The position numbers and the translations under genes are program-made. A stretch of 64,000 nt of DNA from Candidatus Omnitrophota bacterium. GTDB lineage: Bacteria > Omnitrophota > Gorgyraeia > Gygaellales > Profunditerraquicolaceae. Shown here piece by piece: positions 2,119 to 43,346 of the stretch (its first letter is position 1; each line of letters begins with the position of its first letter). The DNA is taken from contig DAONDX010000007.1 of the NCBI GenBank assembly GCA_035402765.1, positions 14,281 through 78,280 on the forward strand, in the 5' to 3' direction. The notes below the pieces were generated by a model, which saw only the letters and a list, made by a program, of their open reading frames with translations, did no database searches and was not told the origin of the DNA.

Positions 2119-2589
2119 ATGAGAAGAAGAAAAGCGCAGGAAAAAGTAATTTTAGCGGACCCTAAATATAATAGCAAAATAATCGCTAAATTCATGAATA
2201 TGGTGATGTACGATGGTAAAAAAGCGGTTGCGGAAAAACTGGTTTATAGCGCTTTTGATATTGTGTTAAAGAACCTTAATGAGCAGGACATCTTAAAAGT
2301 ATTTTATAAAGCATTAGATAATGCCCGTCCGCGCCTGGAAGTTAAACCGCGCAGAGTAGGCGGAGCTACTTATCAGGTACCGATTGAAGTCAGGCAGGAA
2401 CGGGGTACTTCTATAGCTCTGCGTTGGATCAGGGATTTTGCCCAGAATAGAAAAGGTAAACCCATGCAGGAAAAACTGGCTGATGAAATTATCGCCGCCT
2501 ACAAGGGTGAAGGATCAGCAATAAAAAAGAGAGATGATACGCATAAAATGGCTGAATCTAATAAGGCCTATGCGCATTTCCGTTGGTAA
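2119..2589 (+). CDS. rpsG: 30S ribosomal protein S7
   Basis: 156 aa with S7 motifs (KFMNMVMYDGKK...). Sits in the str operon between rpsL and fusA. Confidence 0.95.
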   Translation: MRRRKAQEKVILADPKYNSKIIAKFMNMVMYDGKKAVAEKLVYSAFDIVLKNLNEQDILKVFYKALDNARPRLEVKPRRVGGATYQVPIEVRQERGTSIALRWIRDFAQNRKGKPMQEKLADEIIAAYKGEGSAIKKRDDTHKMAESNKAYAHFRW

Positions 2590-2592
2590 ACT

Positions 2593-4689
2593 ATGAGAAA
2601 GATACCTTTAGATAAAATTAGGAATATCGGAATAATTGCTCACATTGACGCTGGTAAAACAACCACCAGCGAGAGGATATTATTCTATACCGGTAAGAAT
2701 TATAAAATTGGCGAGGTGCATGAGGGTGCCGCGACCATGGATTGGATGGTTCAGGAGCAGGAAAGAGGTATTACGATTACTTCCGCGGCTACTACTTGTA
2801 AGTGGAAAGATGTTACCATCAATCTAATTGATACTCCAGGCCACGTTGATTTTACCATTGAGGTCGAACGTTCATTAAAGGTTTTGGATGGAGCAGTGGT
2901 AGTTTTCTGCAGCGTCGGCGGAGTTCAACCGCAGTCAGAAACCGTATGGCGTCAGGCTGACCGTTATAAAGTGCCGCGCGTAGCCTTTGTGAATAAAATG
3001 GACCGTACCGGTGCGGAATTTTTCAGGGTAGTAGCCCAAATGCATGAAAGGCTGGGGGCTAACGTTGCTCCGATCCAGATGCCGGTAGGCAAAGAAGCTA
3101 ATTTTAGCGGCGTAATAGATTTAGTGGAAAAAAAGTTTATTTATTATAAAGATGAATTAGGGAAAGAATTTGAATTGAAGGATGTCCCCGAAGATATGTT
3201 GGCGGATTTCGACAAATATCGCCTGAATTTGGTAGAAAAAGTTGCCGAAGCTGATGATCCGATCATGGAAGATTATCTGGCGGGTAAGCCGGTAACTAAT
3301 GAACAATTAAAGGCCGGTATCCGCCGGGGTTGTATTGCCAATAAATTTGTTCCAGTATTATGCGGGACCTCCTTTAAGAATAAGGGTGTGCAGCCGCTTT
3401 TAGATGCGGTTAAAGATTATTTGCCTTCTCCGCTTGATGTGCCGCCGGTTAAGGGCACTAATCCGGATACCGGTGAGTTTGAAGAGGTAATTGCAGATGA
3501 TAAATCTCCTTTTACCGCTTTATGCTTTAAAGTAGCATCCGATCCTTTTGTCGGTAAAATTTATTTTACCCGTATGTATTCCGGTACCCTTACTTCCGGA
3601 ATATATATATATAATGCTACTAAACGTATTAGAGAGCGGGTAACTAAAATTGTTAAAATGCATGCTAACCATCAAGAAGTAACCGAGAGTATTTCTACAG
3701 GCGATATCGCAGCCCTGGTAGGATTAAAGGATACTAAAACTGGCGATACTTTATGCACAGAAAAAAATCCTATTCTTATTGAAGCCATGCGTTTTCCGGA
3801 ACCGGTTATTCAACAGGCTATTGAACCTAAGTCCAAAGATGCTCAAGAAAAATTGGGCATGGCTATGCATAAATTAGAAGATGAAGATCCGTCATTCCGG
3901 GTCACTTATAATCAGGAAACCGGTCAGACCTTGATTGCCGGAATGGGGCAGTTGCATTTGGAAATTATCGTTGATAGAATTTTACGTGAATTTAATGTTG
4001 AAGCTACGGTGGGTGCTCCGCAGGTTGCCTACCGGGAGACGATTAGAAAAAGCGTTAACAGTGTCGGAAAATTTATTTCGCAATCCGGCGGACGCGGGCA
4101 ATATGGCCATTGCGTGATTGAAATGAGCCCGCAGGAAACCCCGGGTACCGGAATTACTTTTGAAGATAAAATTAAAAGCGGCGCTATTCCGCGTGAATTT
4201 ATTCCCGCGGTAAAACAAGGCGTTATCGGCGCGGCCAAAAACGGCGTGCTTGCCGGTTATCCGGTTACCGACGTAAAAGTGGTTTTGGTCGACGGTTCAT
4301 TTCATGAAGTTGACTCTTCGGAACTTGCTTTTAAAATGGCCGGTTCTATTGCTTTTCAAGACGGAATGAAAAAAGCGCATCCGGTTTTATTAGAACCAAT
4401 TATGGATATTGAAGTAATTGTTCCGGAAGAGTTTATGGGACAAATTATCGGAGACTTAAGTTCTCGTCGAGCAAAAATAGTGGCGTTGGGTCAGGTACAG
4501 AATTTGCGTAGCATCCGGGCGAACGTTCCGCTCTCAGAAGTTTTTAATTATGCAACTGTAATAAGATCCTTGACACAAGGCCGCGCTTCGTATACAATGG
4601 AACCTTCCTTCTACAGCGAAGTTCCTGCGCATGTAGCGGAAAAAGTAGTTTCAGGATCGGTAAATACAAACGCAAGAAAAACTTTTTAA
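2593..4689 (+). CDS. fusA: elongation factor G
   Basis: 698 aa with the [10 protein letters not shown]-domain and full EF-G domain architecture. Located in the str operon. Confidence 0.95.
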
Positions 4690-7876: not shown

Positions 7877-8713
7877 ATGGGCATAATTAAATTTAAACCA
7901 ACAACACCTAGCCGTAGACATATGAGCGGCCCGGATTTTAAGGAACTTACTAAACATAAACCGGAGCGTTCACTGCTGCTTCCTTTAAAGAAAACCGGCG
8001 GGAGAAATGCTTATGGCAGGATCACTACCCGGCATATCGGCGGCGGTCATAAACGCATGCTTCGGATTATCGATTTTAAACGTGATATTTATGATCAGCC
8101 GGCAAAGGTTATCGCTATCGAATATGACCCCAACCGGTCCGCCAGGATCGCTTTGTTGGAGTATCCGACTAAAGAGAAGCGTTATATTATTGCTCCGCTA
8201 GGCCTTAATGTTGGGGATATGATTATTTCCAGCAATCAAAAAGAAATCGAGATTAAACAAGGCAATTGCCTTCCTTTGCGTAATATTCCTTCCGGTACTC
8301 TTATCCATAATATCGAATTATCTGTAGGTAAAGGCGGACAGATCGTCCGTAGCGCAGGAACGAGCGCTCAGATTATGGCTAAAGAAGGTGATTTAGCGCA
8401 TGTGCGATTACCCTCCGGAGAAGTGAGATTAGTCAGTTTAGATTGCCATGCTACTATAGGCCAGATCGGTAATGTTGATCATGATGCGATTGTTTTAGGA
8501 AAAGCTGGGAAAAGCCGTTGGTTAGGCATTAAACCATCTGTGCGCGGGGTAGTAATGAATCCTTTTGACCATCCGCACGGCGGCGGTGAAGGTAAAAGCG
8601 GGCAGGGTAATCCGCATCCGGTTACGCCTTGGGGCAAGCCGACTAAAGGATATCGCACCAGAAACCGTAAAAAGTACTCAAATAAGTTTATCGTTAAAAG
8701 AAGGAAACCATAA
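7877..8713 (+). CDS. rplB: 50S ribosomal protein L2
   Basis: 278 aa with [15 protein letters not shown] and the GGGEGK..GQG C-terminal motifs. Confidence 0.96.
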
Positions 8714-9390: not shown

Positions 9391-10116
9391 ATGGGTCATA
9401 AGGTAAGTCCTTTATTATTAAGGATTGGTTTTATTAGACAGTGGCACTCGCGTTGGTTTGCTAAGCCGAAAGATTTCGCGCTTTTTATACAGCAGGATTT
9501 TAAGATCAGGAAATTTATTAAAAGTAAATTTAAGCAAGCCGCGATTTCTAAGATCGTGATCGAACGTTTAGCGGAAAAAATTAAGGTCCGTATATTTTCG
9601 GCCCGTCCGGGAATTATTATCGGCCGTCACGGTTCAGATATCGAACGCCTGCGTTCGGATTTGAACGGTTTGGTTAAGAACGAGATTTCTATCGATATTC
9701 AGGAGGTGAATAATCCTACCTGGGATGCGCAATTGGTGGCGGAAAATATCGCTTTGCAGCAGGAAAAGAGAATTGCTTTTCGCCGCGCGGTAAAAAGAGC
9801 AATGGAGCAATCAATGCAATCCGGGGTAAAAGGTATCCGGGTCAGCTGTTCCGGCCGTCTTAATGGCGCGGAAATGGGGCGTAAAGAAACATATAAGATG
9901 GGGAGCGTTCCTTTGCAAACTTTACGTGCAGATATTGATTATGGTTTTGCCGAAGCCCTGACTACTTATGGTTTAATCGGAGTTAAGGTTTGGATCTATA
10001 AGGGTGATATCCTAGGAAAACAATTTATTCAGGAAGATATTAAGCCTGTTCAACAGCAGCAGGGTTCCAGAGAAACAGCTCGGCCGGCACGGCCGCATCA
10101 AGACGCTCCGCGCTAA
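9391..10116 (+). CDS. rpsC: 30S ribosomal protein S3
   Basis: MGHKVSPLLLRIGFIRQWHSRWFA is the S3 N-terminus (KH domain), 241 aa with an R/Q-rich tail. Confidence 0.95.
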   Translation: MGHKVSPLLLRIGFIRQWHSRWFAKPKDFALFIQQDFKIRKFIKSKFKQAAISKIVIERLAEKIKVRIFSARPGIIIGRHGSDIERLRSDLNGLVKNEISIDIQEVNNPTWDAQLVAENIALQQEKRIAFRRAVKRAMEQSMQSGVKGIRVSCSGRLNGAEMGRKETYKMGSVPLQTLRADIDYGFAEALTTYGLIGVKVWIYKGDILGKQFIQEDIKPVQQQQGSRETARPARPHQDAPR

Positions 10117-10207
10117 TTGGAATTGCGCGCGTGTTGGTTAGGTAGACAAGACACCCAACGCCAAGCGGAATTGCGTTGGTGTTGTTTAGGTAGACAAGGA
10201 GTATATA
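10117..10207 (+). repeat. repeat family A copy 1: structured 5' leader element upstream of rplP
   Basis: GACAAG-ACACCCAACGC-loop-GCGTTGGTGT-..-GACAAGGAG-ATG. An internal tandem duplication of a ~31-nt unit (ggaattgcg...ttaggtagacaag) is present. Confidence 0.6.
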
Positions 10208-12585: not shown

Positions 12586-12658
12586 GAGGTTTGCCTGCCG
12601 CAGGCGGTATTTAGTAAGTCGAAATTAGCGAAGTGAAATATAACCATTTGGGGGTTAA

Positions 12659-13095: not shown

Positions 13096-13641
13096 ATGTC
13101 TAGGATTGGAAAAAAATTAGTAGTTATACCCAAGGATGTAAAAGTTGAAGTTAAAGACGGGGTTGTTTACGTGGAGGGCCCTAAAGGTAAACTTAGCCGT
13201 AAATTATCCGATCGGATCAGTGTGGAAATCAAAGACGGACAGCTTTCGGTCAAAAGGGTAGCCGATACCAAGATGGACAGATCTTTGCACGGGTTATTCC
13301 GGGCCTTGATCGTGAATATGATTGTGGGAGTAACTCAAGGGTATCTTAAAGAGCTGGAAATCCAGGGTGTAGGTTTTAAAGCCGTGGTAACCGGGGATAA
13401 ATTGAATCTGGCTTTAGGGTTCTCGCATCCGATAAATTATATAATTCCGGCCGGAATTAAAATTGAAACTCCTAAACCGACGCAACTGGTAATTAGAGGT
13501 ATAGATAAAGAATTGATCGGTGAAGTGGCGACTGAGATTCGCGCATTTTATCCTCCTGAGCCTTATAAGGGCAAAGGGATTCGTTTTGTAGGAGAGCACG
13601 TTAAAAAGAAAGTGGGAAAGGCGCAGGCAACCGGTAAATAG
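13096..13641 (+). CDS. rplF: 50S ribosomal protein L6
   Basis: MSRIGKKLVVIPKDVKV, 181 aa. Confidence 0.95.
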   Translation: MSRIGKKLVVIPKDVKVEVKDGVVYVEGPKGKLSRKLSDRISVEIKDGQLSVKRVADTKMDRSLHGLFRALIVNMIVGVTQGYLKELEIQGVGFKAVVTGDKLNLALGFSHPINYIIPAGIKIETPKPTQLVIRGIDKELIGEVATEIRAFYPPEPYKGKGIRFVGEHVKKKVGKAQATGK

Positions 13642-13712
13642 ATCCCCTTGGGGGATTAATTCGCGCATTAACTTACTTACATTTTAAGTTTGTAAGTTAA
13701 GCGCTCATAAAA

Positions 13713-14072
13713 ATGAGAAAAAAAGAAGAGTTAAGACTTAAGAGACATAATCGGATTAAAATGCGGATGACGGGTACTAAAGAGAAGCCGCGTTTGGTTG
13801 TCCACCGTTCCTTAAAGAATATTTCAGCGCAGGTAATGGATGATACCGTGGGCAAGGTTTTATTTTCTCTTTCAACTAATGATAAGGCAACCAGGCAAAA
13901 ATTCAGCAGTGCGGGAAATCTTAAATCCGCTACGCTCTTTGGAGAATTGTTTGCTCAAGTTGCTAAGGAAAAAGGGGTAAATAAGGTAATTTTTGATCGA
14001 GCGGGATACCTTTATCACGGCAGGATTAAATCTTTTGCCGAGGCATTAAGAAAAGGTGGAATGGAGTTTTAA
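13713..14072 (+). CDS. rplR: 50S ribosomal protein L18
   Basis: 119 aa in the L18 position with the [25 protein letters not shown]-terminus. Confidence 0.93.
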
Positions 14073-17078: not shown

Positions 17079-17821
17079 TTTTTCTCAAGTCCCCAAAAGA
17101 CTTGATTATGCTTAAGCGTTCGGGAGCGATTCTGGCATCTGTGATGCAGAAACTACAGGTTCTTCTGCATCCGGGGATGACCACTTTGGAGCTGGATCTT
17201 TTGAGCGAAGAATTGATTCGCAAAGAAAAAGTTCTGCCGGCTTTTAAAGGGTATAACGGTTTCCCGGGAACAGCTTGTATTTCCGTAAACGAAGAAATTG
17301 TCCATGGGATTCCGGGATCCAGAGTGATTTCGGATGGAGATATCGTAAGTATAGATTTAGGGGTAAATTACGAAGGTTTTTTCTCGGACATGGCAGTGAC
17401 CTTACCGGTGGGTAAGGTAGGTGACGATAAGTTAAAGTTAATCGCGGCCACGAAAGAGTCTTTAAACCTCGGGATCAAGCAGGCGCAAGCCGGGAATCAT
17501 CTAACTGATATTTCTCATAGTATCCAGAGTTTTGTTGAGGCGCAGGGTTTTTCGGTGGTACGCCAGTTTGTCGGGCATGGGATCGGACGCGCCTTGCATG
17601 AAGAACCGGAGATCCCTAATTATGGACGCCCGGGTTTTGGTCCGCTTTTAAAAAACGGAATGGTTTTAGCGATCGAACCAATGGTCAATCTTGGCGGTTG
17701 GGAATGTTTGGTTACCGGAAATGGCTGGACCGCCGTAACCAAGGATGGGTCAGTTTCAGCGCATTTTGAGCATACGGTAGCGATTACGGATAACGGCCCG
17801 GTAGTCTTGACAAAGTTATAA
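17075..17821 (+). CDS. map: methionine aminopeptidase type I
   Basis: 248 aa with metal-binding D/H/E motifs. ATGA overlap with adk. Confidence 0.92.
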   Translation: MIFLKSPKDLIMLKRSGAILASVMQKLQVLLHPGMTTLELDLLSEELIRKEKVLPAFKGYNGFPGTACISVNEEIVHGIPGSRVISDGDIVSIDLGVNYEGFFSDMAVTLPVGKVGDDKLKLIAATKESLNLGIKQAQAGNHLTDISHSIQSFVEAQGFSVVRQFVGHGIGRALHEEPEIPNYGRPGFGPLLKNGMVLAIEPMVNLGGWECLVTGNGWTAVTKDGSVSAHFEHTVAITDNGPVVLTKL

Positions 17822-17876
17822 GAGAATTGTTCTTTTACTATAGTTTTATAGCAGAGTATTTATTAACGGAGTTTCC

Positions 17877-17995
17877 GCCTCAGTAACACGTAAAAATTCT
17901 CTGGAATTTTTACGATTCGGCGGAATAAATTCGCAGACGGCCTGGCGGCCTACGACTTATGTCGCTGTCGCTTCCGTAAGTTGTCTGCTCATTTA
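17877..17995 (+). repeat. repeat family B copy 1: ~120-nt structured leader directly 5' of infA
   Basis: Near-identical to 42755..42887. Hairpin ACGTAAAAATTC/GAATTTTTACG(T), GGCC-tggc-GGCC, and a long-range GCAGACG/TGTCTGC stem ending ...CTGCTCATTTA immediately before the ATG. Confidence 0.65.
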
Positions 17996-18214
17996 ATGCC
18001 AAAAGAAGATTTAATCGAAACAGAAGGAAAAATTATTGAAGCTTTACCGAACGCGATGTTTAAGGTTGAGCTTGAAAACGGGCATGTGGTGTTGGCGCAT
18101 GTTTCAGGAAAAATGCGCATGAATTTTATTAGAATAATTCCGGGTGACAAAGTTAAACTAGAACTTTCTCCTTATGATCTTTCCCGGGGGAGAATTACTT
18201 TTCGGGTGAGATAA
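17996..18214 (+). CDS. infA: translation initiation factor IF-1
   Basis: [30 protein letters not shown]..., S1-like. The ATG at 17996 is preferred over the TTG at 17981. Confidence 0.93.
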
Positions 18215-18328: not shown

Positions 18329-18434
18329 ATAACGCCCCGCGCTAAATTGTTTGGCGCGAAGGTTATATTGATGACAAGACACCCAGCGTTAAATATAATT
18401 GCGTTGGTGTTGTCCTCGCGGACAAGGAGTAGAC
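18329..18434 (+). repeat. repeat family A copy 2: structured 5' leader element upstream of rpsM
   Basis: GACAAG-ACACCCAGCG-loop-AATTGCGTTGGTGTTGT-..-GACAAGGAG. Same stem as copy 1 with an A->G change read as A-U to G.U, and a different loop. Confidence 0.6.
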
Positions 18435-41132: not shown

Positions 41133-42194
41133 ATGAACTCTCGCCTAAAGAGCATATATTCCCAATTAAAACAGAGAGGCTTAGACGGCCTCTTGGTTAG
41201 CTTACCGGCTAACGTTTCTTATTTGACTGAATCTTTAAGCCGCGATGCCTATCTTTTAGTTTCCGCAAAAGAAAATATCTATTTTACCGATTCCCGTTAC
41301 ACCGAAGAAGCCAAAGCTTTTTTAAAAGATAATGCTTTGCTTAAAGAATGTAACGGCGGGGTGTTTAAGCATATCGCTGAAACCGCTCTTGATTTGGGGC
41401 TTAAAACAATAGGTTTTGAAGAAAGATACCTGCCGTTTGCGGAATTTACTAAAGTTAAGGAATATTCAAGGGGAAAGTTCGGTTTGGTGCCGACGCACAG
41501 TATAATCGAAGATAAAAGGCAGGTAAAAGATGCTCAGGAAATCGCTAAACTTAAGCAAGCTGCCCGGATTACTGTGATGGCTTTAGATCATATTAAGAAG
41601 TTTCTTGCCCCCGGCGTTAAAGAAATCGAAATAGTGGCTGAACTTGAGCGTTTTATGAGGTATCACGGCAGCCAAGGGCCGGCTTTTGATATAATTGTGG
41701 CTGCGGGGGCTAATTCCAGCCAGCCGCATCATCTTTCCGGGACACGGAAACTGAAAGATAATGAACCGGTCCTTATTGATTTAGGGGTTAACTACCAAGG
41801 ATATAAATCTGACTTGACAAGGGTTTTGTTTTTGGGTAAAATAAATATTCTTGTCCGTAAGGTTTACGACATTGTTCTTCGTGCCCAGGAATTGGCGATC
41901 AAAATGATCCGGCCTGGCGCTGAAATGGCTGAAATTGATAGGGTTGCGCGGGAATACATTGCCAGCCAAGGTTATGGCGCATGTTTTACGCATAATCTGG
42001 GCCATGGTTTCGGCTTAGAGATACATGAAGCTCCGCATATCAGCGGCCGGGAAGCCAGCGCGCTTAAGCCGGGTATGACTTTTACGGTGGAACCGGGGAT
42101 ATACCTTCCGGGCAAATTTGGTATCAGAATCGAGGATATGGTTTTAATAACAACTAAAAGCTGTGAGGTGATCAGTGGCGCTAGGCATAAATGA
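41133..42194 (+). CDS. pepP: Xaa-Pro aminopeptidase (M24B family)
   Basis: 353 aa with the creatinase-like N-domain and M24 metal ligands (DLG..D, HNLGHGFGLEIHE, E..E). Confidence 0.85.
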   Translation: MNSRLKSIYSQLKQRGLDGLLVSLPANVSYLTESLSRDAYLLVSAKENIYFTDSRYTEEAKAFLKDNALLKECNGGVFKHIAETALDLGLKTIGFEERYLPFAEFTKVKEYSRGKFGLVPTHSIIEDKRQVKDAQEIAKLKQAARITVMALDHIKKFLAPGVKEIEIVAELERFMRYHGSQGPAFDIIVAAGANSSQPHHLSGTRKLKDNEPVLIDLGVNYQGYKSDLTRVLFLGKINILVRKVYDIVLRAQELAIKMIRPGAEMAEIDRVAREYIASQGYGACFTHNLGHGFGLEIHEAPHISGREASALKPGMTFTVEPGIYLPGKFGIRIEDMVLITTKSCEVISGARHK

Positions 42195-42741: not shown

Positions 42742-42754
42742 GCAGGTAAACTTT

Positions 42755-42887
42755 GCCTCAGAAGCACGCAAAAATTCTTTAGAATTTTTGCGATTCGGCG
42801 AAGTAAATTCGCAGACGGCCTGGCGGCCTATGACTCACCTGGGCTATCGGCACTGTAAGTCGTCTGCTCATTTAAAGGAGTTTTTAA
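42755..42887 (+). repeat. repeat family B copy 2: ~130-nt structured leader directly 5' of accB
   Basis: Same architecture as copy 1. Hairpin CGCAAAAATTC/GAATTTTTGCG (U-A to C-G covariation), GCAGACG/CGTCTGC stem (G.U to G-C), then AAGGAG SD and ATG. Confidence 0.65.
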
Positions 42888-43346
42888 ATGAACATTAAAG
42901 AAATTAAAGAAATGATTAATTTGATGAACGAAAATGGTTTGGCTGAGCTGGAGGTAGAGAAGGATGATATGCGTATCCGCCTCAAGAAAACCGCTACCGG
43001 TTTTGAAGGGACGCAGGCTCCGATAATTTACTCAGCCCAAGCTCCCGCCGCCGGGGCAGCTAATCTGCAGAGCGCGGGCCAGCCTGAAGAGAAGATTGTA
43101 ATTAAAACGGTGGAGATTAAATCTCCCATGGTGGGAACTTTTTACCGCGCGCCAAATCCCGAAGCCCCGCCGTATGTTGAGATCGGCCAGGTAATTGAGC
43201 CAGGCCAGGTAATTTGTATTATTGAAGCGATGAAGTTGATGAATGAAATAAAATCCGAGATCAAAGGAAAAATTCTGGAAATTTTAGTTGATAATGCTGA
43301 ACCGGTAGAGTTCGGTCAATCGCTTTTTCTTATTGACCCGCTTTAA
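42888..43346 (+). CDS. accB: biotin carboxyl carrier protein of acetyl-CoA carboxylase
   Basis: 152 aa with the EAMKLMNEI biotinyl-lysine motif. Confidence 0.92.
   Translation: MNIKEIKEMINLMNENGLAELEVEKDDMRIRLKKTATGFEGTQAPIIYSAQAPAAGAANLQSAGQPEEKIVIKTVEIKSPMVGTFYRAPNPEAPPYVEIGQVIEPGQVICIIEAMKLMNEIKSEIKGKILEILVDNAEPVEFGQSLFLIDPL

Follow-up and report, generated by a model that had tools for sequence, protein, structure and literature searches.

Two structured elements located directly upstream of infA and accB in a 64,000-nt stretch of Omnitrophota DNA (the whole of which is called the window here) are most probably dispersed, modular, hairpin-forming intergenic repeats of a REP/BIME- or MITE-like kind that occur across many Omnitrophota-labelled genomes, and not a gene-specific regulator; we put the probability of this reading at roughly 0.75. 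A preceding sequence-only reading had offered two options, a new cis-regulatory RNA linking translation initiation with fatty-acid synthesis or a dispersed structured repeat family, and the second is what the data show. The family combines many copies, unrelated neighbours, turnover at gene junctions, homogenisation within genomes and modules of alternating orientation. Its units are gained, lost and swapped at short spacers and homogenised within genomes, and therefore behave as a dispersed repeat. The regulatory option is contradicted by the functionally unrelated downstream genes, by the presence or absence of the element at orthologous junctions of close relatives, and by the map-infA junction, which carries different family members or none despite an identical InfA protein. 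We thus see no regulatory link between infA and accB.

Anatomy of the window copies and of the family

The two copies are found on the + strand as described before, one in the gene order adk-map-(copy 1)-infA-rpmJ-rpsM and the other in the order pepP-efp-(copy 2)-accB-accC. The window itself matches a section of CAZRBT010000007.1 (assembly GCA_964598445.1). Their first 81 nt are 89% identical, in agreement with the near-identity reported for this part, and their last 33 nt are 82% identical. The 24-mer ATTCGCAGACGGCCTGGCGGCCTA common to both occurs exactly twice in the window (0 expected from 100 shuffles), and the folding of each copy beats 200 of 200 shuffles (z = -4.3 and -4.5). A third, reduced copy was found with a covariance model (CM) at 13652-13713, between rplF and rplR. 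The features assigned in the window are the following:

17873-17925 (+): copy 1, P1-B two-tier hairpin; from the fold, with the RNAalifold consensus of 12 copies compensatory in both tiers
17926-17995 (+): copy 1, full core, three-way junction; CM R1 85.3 bits, E 3.7e-24
42750-42803 (+): copy 2, P1-B two-tier hairpin; from the fold and RNAalifold
42804-42876 (+): copy 2, full core; CM R1 69.7 bits, E 3.4e-19
13642-13712 (+): copy 3, reduced unit; CM R1 27.5 bits, E 8.5e-6 with filters off
12586-12658 (+): possible decayed remnant in the rpsZ-rpsH spacer; from alignment with the full copies that L022, L067 and L083 carry at the orthologous junction

The boundaries drawn earlier needed slight adjustment, as copy 1 begins a few bases upstream of 17877, at 17873, and the core of copy 2 stops at 42876. 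Both copies had been described as ending at a start codon. This holds for infA, whose ATG (17996) directly adjoins the last base pair, with no SD there; the accB copy is instead followed by an SD (GGAG, 42877-42880) that lies outside the fold, with the ATG at 42888. The proposed 11-bp hairpin is real, including its U-A to C-G swap (CGTAAAAATTC/GAATTTTTACG in copy 1 versus CGCAAAAATTC/GAATTTTTGCG in copy 2). In copy 1 it forms the inner stem of P1-B (17889-17899/17904-17914, loop TCTG), separated by an internal loop from the outer stem TTCCGCC/GGCGGAA; in copy 2 the outer stem is ACTTTGCC/GGCGAAGT. The small GGCC-tggc-GGCC hairpin is likewise present in both copies. As for the long-range stem, the enclosing helix GCAGA...TCTGC stands, whereas the enclosed region, previously considered a variable stretch of about 30 nt, is a covarying 9-bp hairpin (P3), and the core is therefore a three-way junction. 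Additionally, the linker pairs with the bases just 5' of the start codon in a further 5-bp outer helix, TAAAT/ATTTA. In copy 1, this outer helix (17926-17930/17991-17995) is followed by a TC/TC internal loop, P2 GCAGA/TCTGC (17933-17937/17984-17988), P2a GGCC-TGGC-GGCC (17939-17950) and P3 (17953-17961/17975-17983, tip 17962-17974). The corresponding positions in copy 2 are 42804-42808/42870-42874 for the outer helix, 42811-42815/42863-42867 for P2, 42817-42828 for P2a and 42831-42839/42854-42862 for P3.

Copy 3 occupies the entire spacer between the rplF stop codon (13639-13641) and the rplR ATG (13713). It consists of P1 ATCCCCttGGGGGAT (13642-13656), the linker TAATTC, P2 GCGC/GCGC (13663-13666/13701-13704), P3 TTAACTTAC/GTAAGTTAA (13668-13676/13692-13700) and the tail TCATAAAA, without a GGCC branch. 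The rpsZ-rpsH spacer contains a P1-like hairpin, a TAAGTCG fragment and a conserved SD flank, TTGGGGGTTAAATG; the similarity is weak, and the spacer is possibly a decayed relic of the full element that is intact in L022, L067 and L083. One more CM match in the window, 2274-2349 (-), was rejected as a chance match because it lies inside rpsG on the opposite strand. We also observed 74% identity between window positions 17350-17395, in map, and 41774-41819, in the Xaa-Pro peptidase gene upstream of efp; since both genes encode Peptidase_M24 proteins, this is coding similarity of paralogues outside the repeat.

The anatomy of the family was derived from an alignment of 89 cores out of about 100 relatives. 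A unit consists of a variable palindromic hairpin, P1, and a long irregular hairpin composed of a 5-bp outer helix, a TC/TC internal loop, a 5-bp P2 and a 9-bp P3, which contains another TC/TC loop as well as a tip that varies. In the full form, an invariant GGCC-NNNN-GGCC branch is added, which makes it a three-way junction. Its consensus starts with the outer helix WWAAU/AUUWW, the TC/TC loop and P2 GCAGA/UCUGC; inside P2 follow a single C, P2a (GGCC-NNNN-GGCC), UA and the 9 bp of P3 (NNNNUUAYG/CRUAANNNN), and the tail UCAUUWAA runs straight into AGGAGG or AUG. P1 is a palindromic hairpin of a handful of recurring sequence types, of which the two-tier P1-B is the type of the infA and accB copies.

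The covarying stems on which the sequence-only reading had based its interest were upheld. In the 89-copy alignment, 97.1% of cells are paired, compared to 27-46% when the partners are slid. Twelve pairs carry changes on both sides, among them all 9 pairs of P3, and the covariation score is 0.26 versus 0.10 for shuffled alignments, with the observed values reached in 0 of 500 shuffles. The outer-helix pair 6:84, for example, occurs as UA (47 copies), AU (30 copies) and CG (3 copies). RNAalifold, run independently, identified 16 of 43 pairs as compensatory and recovered every helix from 12 copies of the P1-B type. The family thus displays the helix-preserving compensatory changes by which structured RNAs are generally recognised; the same pattern would also arise from single-stranded DNA hairpins. 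P2 and P2a show zero variation among the 89 aligned cores, which for their 5' halves is due to the search pattern, as it forced those bases. The 3' strand of P2, TCTGC, which was not forced, is nearly invariant, and the unanchored CM matches include few variants of the GGCC branch. In the reduced units, P2 covaries freely (GCGC/GCGC, GGACA/UGUCC, AGCCA/UGGCU and others). The conserved bases of the core are located in helices and not in junctions. For a pairing between the P2a loop and the GUAA of P3, the core alignment gave no support, as loop positions 2-3 vary without correlated change.

Distribution and turnover at gene junctions

The pattern TTCGCAGACGGCCNNNNGGCCTA was scanned against one genome per species and returned 105 stretches; the junction core pattern comprises 19 specified bases. 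About 100 of the 105 stretches are true elements, originating from 61 species-level genomes. Four matches in unrelated phyla lack the 3' half, compared to about four expected by chance. Nearly all genomes with the core are labelled Omnitrophota, and six are labelled Planctomycet*. At least one of these six labels, that of L022, looks wrong because its ribosomal proteins are ~86% identical to those of the window and 93% identical to those of the Omnitrophota-labelled L067. The 64-kb window has 3 copies, and one MAG has at least 12 exact-core copies; any copy number per genome is an extrapolation from these two. A search of viral contigs with the core pattern gave zero matches.

In 709 kb of related loci, we found 163 CM matches, of which about 60 are reduced units. 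Only 4 of the 163 fall inside called ORFs, and all 3 window copies are intergenic. Many reduced units precede a full copy by 40-120 nt; they are on the opposite strand and use the same P1, so that the order is inverted reduced unit, P1, forward full unit and SD. The complete arrangement of inverted reduced unit, shared P1 and forward full unit was found in ~17-20 loci. The stop codon of the upstream gene is contained in the end of the inverted units, as UAAGUGAGG or AAAUGAAG, and in L019 the element takes the place of the last rpsL codons. Tandem arrays of two or three units occur as well (L028 98-258 and 977-1098, L014 4406-4583, L053 2218-2379). In the full core at L028 977-1098, a 45-nt hairpin is inserted in the tip of P3.

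A number of junctions, among them rpsL|rpsG, rpsS|rplV, rplF|rplR, map|infA and rpsD|rpoA, are filled in one genome and reduced to spacers of 0-17 nt in another. The difference is clearest at rplF|rplR, which is empty in L022 and L067. In the window, this junction reads ...aaaTAG, 67 nt, CTCATAAAA and ATG (a 67-nt insert followed by CTCATAAAAATG), and in relatives with ~86% identical ribosomal proteins it is TAAAATG or TAAAAATG, i.e. TAA-A(A)-ATG. At map-infA, four states of the spacer were found alongside an identical InfA protein:

17 nt, L107: empty
91 nt, L111-L113: small P1 and reduced unit, ending in TCATTT-ATG
113 nt, L110: another hairpin module and a decayed core
174 nt, window, L106, L108 and L109: P1-B and full core

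For accB, a search for the exact AccB protein matched the source genome only. Copies within a genome are more similar to each other at variable columns (identity 0.75) than copies from different genomes (0.61), a difference reached in 0 of 2000 permutations. In spite of this homogenisation, a core of 19-23 nt is identical across genomes whose ribosomal proteins are only 64-68% identical, which is unusually deep conservation for a selfish repeat and hints at a partner or function that is itself conserved.

The filled and empty states of rplF|rplR are compatible with duplication of a TA target site, and the composite in L013 has differing ends (left flank AAAT, right flank TTGAA). The terminal bases of units covary with the unit's own linker. 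Terminal inverted repeats are absent from the single insertion of P1 and unit at rplF|rplR; in the composite form, which consists of two inverted units, the ends are for this reason imperfectly inverted (RTGAGSASA...). Among the recurrent ORF families of the 709 kb of sampled loci, neither a transposase nor a parent element was found. Separately, small GIY-YIG-like ORFs, recognised by eye in translations, immediately precede full elements in two unrelated genomes (L029 ~80-330, - strand; L042 ~2900-3150, + strand), which may be chance or a hint of mobility.

Neighbouring genes, orientation and strand

The 72 downstream proteins that we scanned represent 80 Pfam families with a maximum of 3 members per family. 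A start codon (ORF of at least 50 aa) lies within 60 nt on the same strand in 78 of 99 full copies, mostly 10-18 nt past CTCATT with an SD in between. In about 10 full copies, to which infA belongs, the AUG follows CTCATT after 1-4 nt without an SD, and in three orthologous loci a tRNA gene takes the place of the protein start. Independent ORF calls placed 58 near downstream neighbours on the strand of the full copy and 2 on the other one; for 88 of 98 copies, the gene on the upstream side is co-directional. Of the reduced units, 24 are inverted and adjoin a stop codon, and 13 belong to the leader type. The sequence-only reading had named dozens of copies at random orientations as the mark of a plain MITE: many copies were found indeed, but the full form is anything but randomly oriented.

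The conserved fold stops exactly at the SD or AUG and leaves it outside. In partition-function folds, the SD is predicted to be unpaired with a probability of 0.50 next to the native element compared to 0.35 next to a shuffled one, and the native element exposes the SD more in 47 of 58 cases (p = 2e-6). We therefore favour a self-contained element whose structure is tolerated, and may even be of use, since it leaves the ribosome-binding site free and could give protected or processed ends. Scans for terminator-like sites called none at any of the three window copies. Promoter scans at these copies revealed nothing convincing, with site counts near the shuffle expectation; the only promoter-like site nearby is a weak 9/12 match ending 2 nt before copy 2. 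Two arrangements at related loci deserve mention here. In L010, a classical TTGACT-17-TATAAT pair (7893-7940, +) lies immediately downstream of a full element, which would thus be upstream of the next gene's promoter and not within its leader. In L051, an FMN riboswitch with a terminator-like hairpin (2655-2779, +) is positioned head-on to the 3' end of a full element (2817-2899, -), with a gene-free gap between the two.

With regard to the strand that folds, the complement of the downstream mRNA has a folding energy better by 4.5 kcal/mol in 85 of 89 full copies, because the TC/TC loops become GA/GA and the UNNC loops become GNNA. On this strand, the P2a loop reads GNNA, often GUAA, GCAA or GAAA (columns 22-25 of alignment A2), and both internal loops are tandem GA/GA (columns 10-11 and 79-80). 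An alignment-based count on the mRNA strand gave 14 G-U versus 30 A-C, and an MFE-based count showed no bias in full copies and the opposite bias in reduced ones. RNA-typical features (tandem GA loops, GNNA tetraloops, better folding energy) are on the strand complementary to the downstream mRNA in full units and on the mRNA strand in the inverted stop-codon units.

Possible functions, alternative explanations and related systems

In the repeat reading, units are gained, lost and swapped in the short spacers of co-directional genes, and only certain orientations persist: full units just 5' of the next SD or start codon and in the same direction, and reduced units also inverted, with the stop codon of the upstream gene within the outer helix. 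The unit would be co-transcribed with its neighbours; since full copies occur almost only between co-directional genes, often in ribosomal protein operons, they are most likely part of the mRNA. As RNA, the unit would fold on itself, so that the base of a rigid helix would present the ribosome-binding site in exposed form, and it may also provide defined, protected or processed mRNA ends. Candidate routes of spread are a transposase acting in trans, or recombination and gene conversion. A role at the RNA level is plausible and would consist, for example, in an accessible binding site, transcript processing or transcript stability. The near-absolute orientation of the full copies argues for more than passive tolerance, and together with the deep conservation of the core it suggests a conserved partner, which could be a transposase-like enzyme, an RNA-binding protein or an RNase. 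If such a partner exists, the element would provide a way into mRNA processing or translation initiation for organisms that still resist cultivation.

A rival explanation is a dedicated RNA element kept for its function and not as a selfish repeat. It would punctuate polycistronic transcripts, and a conserved trans factor (a protein, an RNase or the ribosome) that recognises the invariant three-way junction would cut or protect these transcripts at gene boundaries and set up translation of the next gene. Parallels are the phage T7 RNase III sites and the intercistronic sites bound by PPR proteins in chloroplasts, i.e. long, irregular hairpins with internal loops that are located between cistrons and next to the downstream ribosome-binding site. 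The analogy is functional only, in that the elements could likewise leave protective structures on both products, and the T7 and PPR sites, unlike the family, are not dispersed, homogenised repeats. The near-invariance of P2 and P2a where the search did not force it, as in the 3' TCTGC and in the rarity of GGCC-branch variants, speaks for this explanation, as do the core shared at 64-68% ribosomal protein identity, the strict orientation and flush spacing to SD or AUG, the 88 of 98 copies between co-directional genes, the copies preceding tRNA genes, the stop codons within inverted units and the predicted SD exposure. However, the orthologous junctions of close relatives do without the element in spacers of 0-17 nt, rpsZ|rpsH may contain a decayed remnant, homogenisation within genomes is typical of spreading repeats, and the tandem GA, the GNNA loops and the fold that is better by 4.5 kcal/mol are on the complementary strand and not on the mRNA. 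Overall, we consider dedicated punctuation unlikely. A more elaborate form of it, in which a conserved factor recognises the invariant junction at the ribosome-binding site while the inverted partner encloses the stop codon, so that a portable, spreading cassette would have transcripts processed and starts organised at hundreds of gene boundaries, including SD-less AUGs, is in our estimate somewhat less likely still.

The remaining explanations are far less probable than punctuation. A portable promoter and/or terminator cassette acting at the DNA level, with P1 as terminator and the core as a promoter with a very short leader or none, would agree with the GC-rich P1 hairpin and its partly T-rich linker, with copies that precede tRNA genes or SD-less ATGs 1-4 nt away, and with the weak promoter-like site that ends 2 nt before copy 2. 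Apart from this 9/12 match, nothing passed the scans of the window copies, where counts were near the shuffle expectation, and inspection of the alignment by eye showed no -10-like hexamer at a fixed position of the core. Moreover, compensatory changes in P3 and the outer helix are unexpected for a double-stranded promoter, copies reside inside ribosomal protein operons, where termination would be harmful, and several loci have classical TTGACA/TATAAT pairs upstream of P1. We therefore regard such a cassette as highly improbable. A gene-specific cis-regulatory leader, either a riboswitch or a protein-binding structure co-regulating infA and accB, has in its favour the placement in two 5' leaders, the strong structure and the infA start codon adjoining the fold. 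It fails on every test: the downstream genes are unrelated across the family, despite identical InfA, the map-infA junction is without the element or has a different module, the conserved fold does not sequester the SD, and the conserved bases are in helices and not in junctions as in ligand pockets. We give it next to no credence, and the same applies to a new self-cleaving ribozyme that trims the leader as a natural insulator. In its favour are the compactness of the three-way junction and its invariant bases, located just 5' of ribosome-binding sites; as no known family matches, a novel ribozyme is conceivable. Against this, Rfam gave no match to a ribozyme model although E values up to 10 were admitted, only 3 bases of the junction are unpaired, the same positions are occupied by a reduced form without the branch, and units are found in both orientations.

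Among known systems, the dispersed repeats described here resemble the REP/BIME elements of Enterobacteria and Pseudomonas in several respects: these are extragenic, multi-copy, imperfect palindromes between co-transcribed genes, and the units of our family likewise alternate in orientation around a linker motif, form a mosaic of modules, in some cases directly follow stop codons, and are homogenised within genomes. According to PMC3733652, REPs measure 20-40 bp and fall into two superfamilies marked by a GTAG or CGTC end tag. Compared to these, the units found here are longer (60-75 nt) and lack a GTAG/CGTC tag, their ends being TTAATTC and TCATTAA or TAAGTTC and TCACTTA. Further differences are that no RAYT-type transposase was found among the recurrent ORF families of the sampled loci, that the full form is branched as a three-way junction and placed in fixed orientation flush with the next SD, and that the core is conserved across genomes with only 64-68% identical ribosomal proteins. 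The Correia/NEMIS elements of Neisseria and the ERIC elements of Enterobacteriaceae, which are MITEs transcribed with adjacent genes that may affect mRNA stability (PMC3184786), are likewise non-coding, ~100-230 bp in size and form long stem-loops as RNA, and co-transcription is most likely for the family described here too. As with MITEs, there is insertion polymorphism among relatives, and the composite form has inverted, though imperfect, ends. In contrast to MITEs, the family shows no consistent target-site duplication (one case is TA-compatible, another is not), its single units lack terminal inverted repeats, its orientation bias is nearly absolute, and no parent insertion sequence was seen among the recurrent ORF families of the sampled loci. 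REP2 of Neisseria, which has been reported to carry a promoter along with a ribosome-binding site and ATG, is similar in that it is located directly upstream of many unrelated genes and carries or adjoins the ribosome-binding site (PMC3184786). It differs in that no promoter was found at the window copies, the sequences are unrelated, and an inverted stop-codon form exists here. The family is thus neither a clean member of REP/BIME nor a clean MITE.

In line with the earlier statement that the element is not a known ribosomal protein leader or riboswitch, no Rfam family matched it at the gathering threshold. Over the whole window, Rfam identified only a cobalamin riboswitch (RF00174, 34558-34738, +, 79.9 bits) and a tRNA, both located elsewhere than the copies; at 17800-18020, a search with E up to 10 gave three chance-level matches of ~14-15 bits against thresholds of 50-60, and over 18 related loci only tRNAs and one FMN riboswitch were found. 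Full-text literature searches with RNA-motif and repeat terms, and the Omnitrophota papers that were term-searched, contained no description of such an element. As far as checked, the family is therefore undescribed, and it is absent from Rfam 15. Structured intergenic repeats as such are already well known (PMC3184786, PMC3733652). What is new is that one form is branched, that it is placed flush and oriented at ribosome-binding sites, that an inverted partner encloses the stop codon, and that core conservation reaches so deep; this depth and the strict orientation of the full form at ribosome-binding sites are unusual for REP/MITE-like repeats. Because many spacers of this uncultured, small-genome phylum are filled by the element, gene calling, operon prediction and searches for regulatory RNAs are affected there.

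A second repeat family was observed in the window just upstream of rplP and rpsM (GACAAGACACC-CAACGC...GCGTTG-GGTGTTGTC...GACAAGGAG; 10097-10203 and 18373-18431, both +). GACAAG occurs in its 5' arm and again overlapping the SD, so that an alternative pairing with the SD is possible. The copy upstream of rpsM contains a strong sigma-70-like match (18371-18399, +, ATGACA-17-TATAAT, 11/12), which is not conserved in the other copy at 10145. The hairpin module of this second family also serves as P1 of full cores in L028 and L098 and is found in spacers of L062 and L110.
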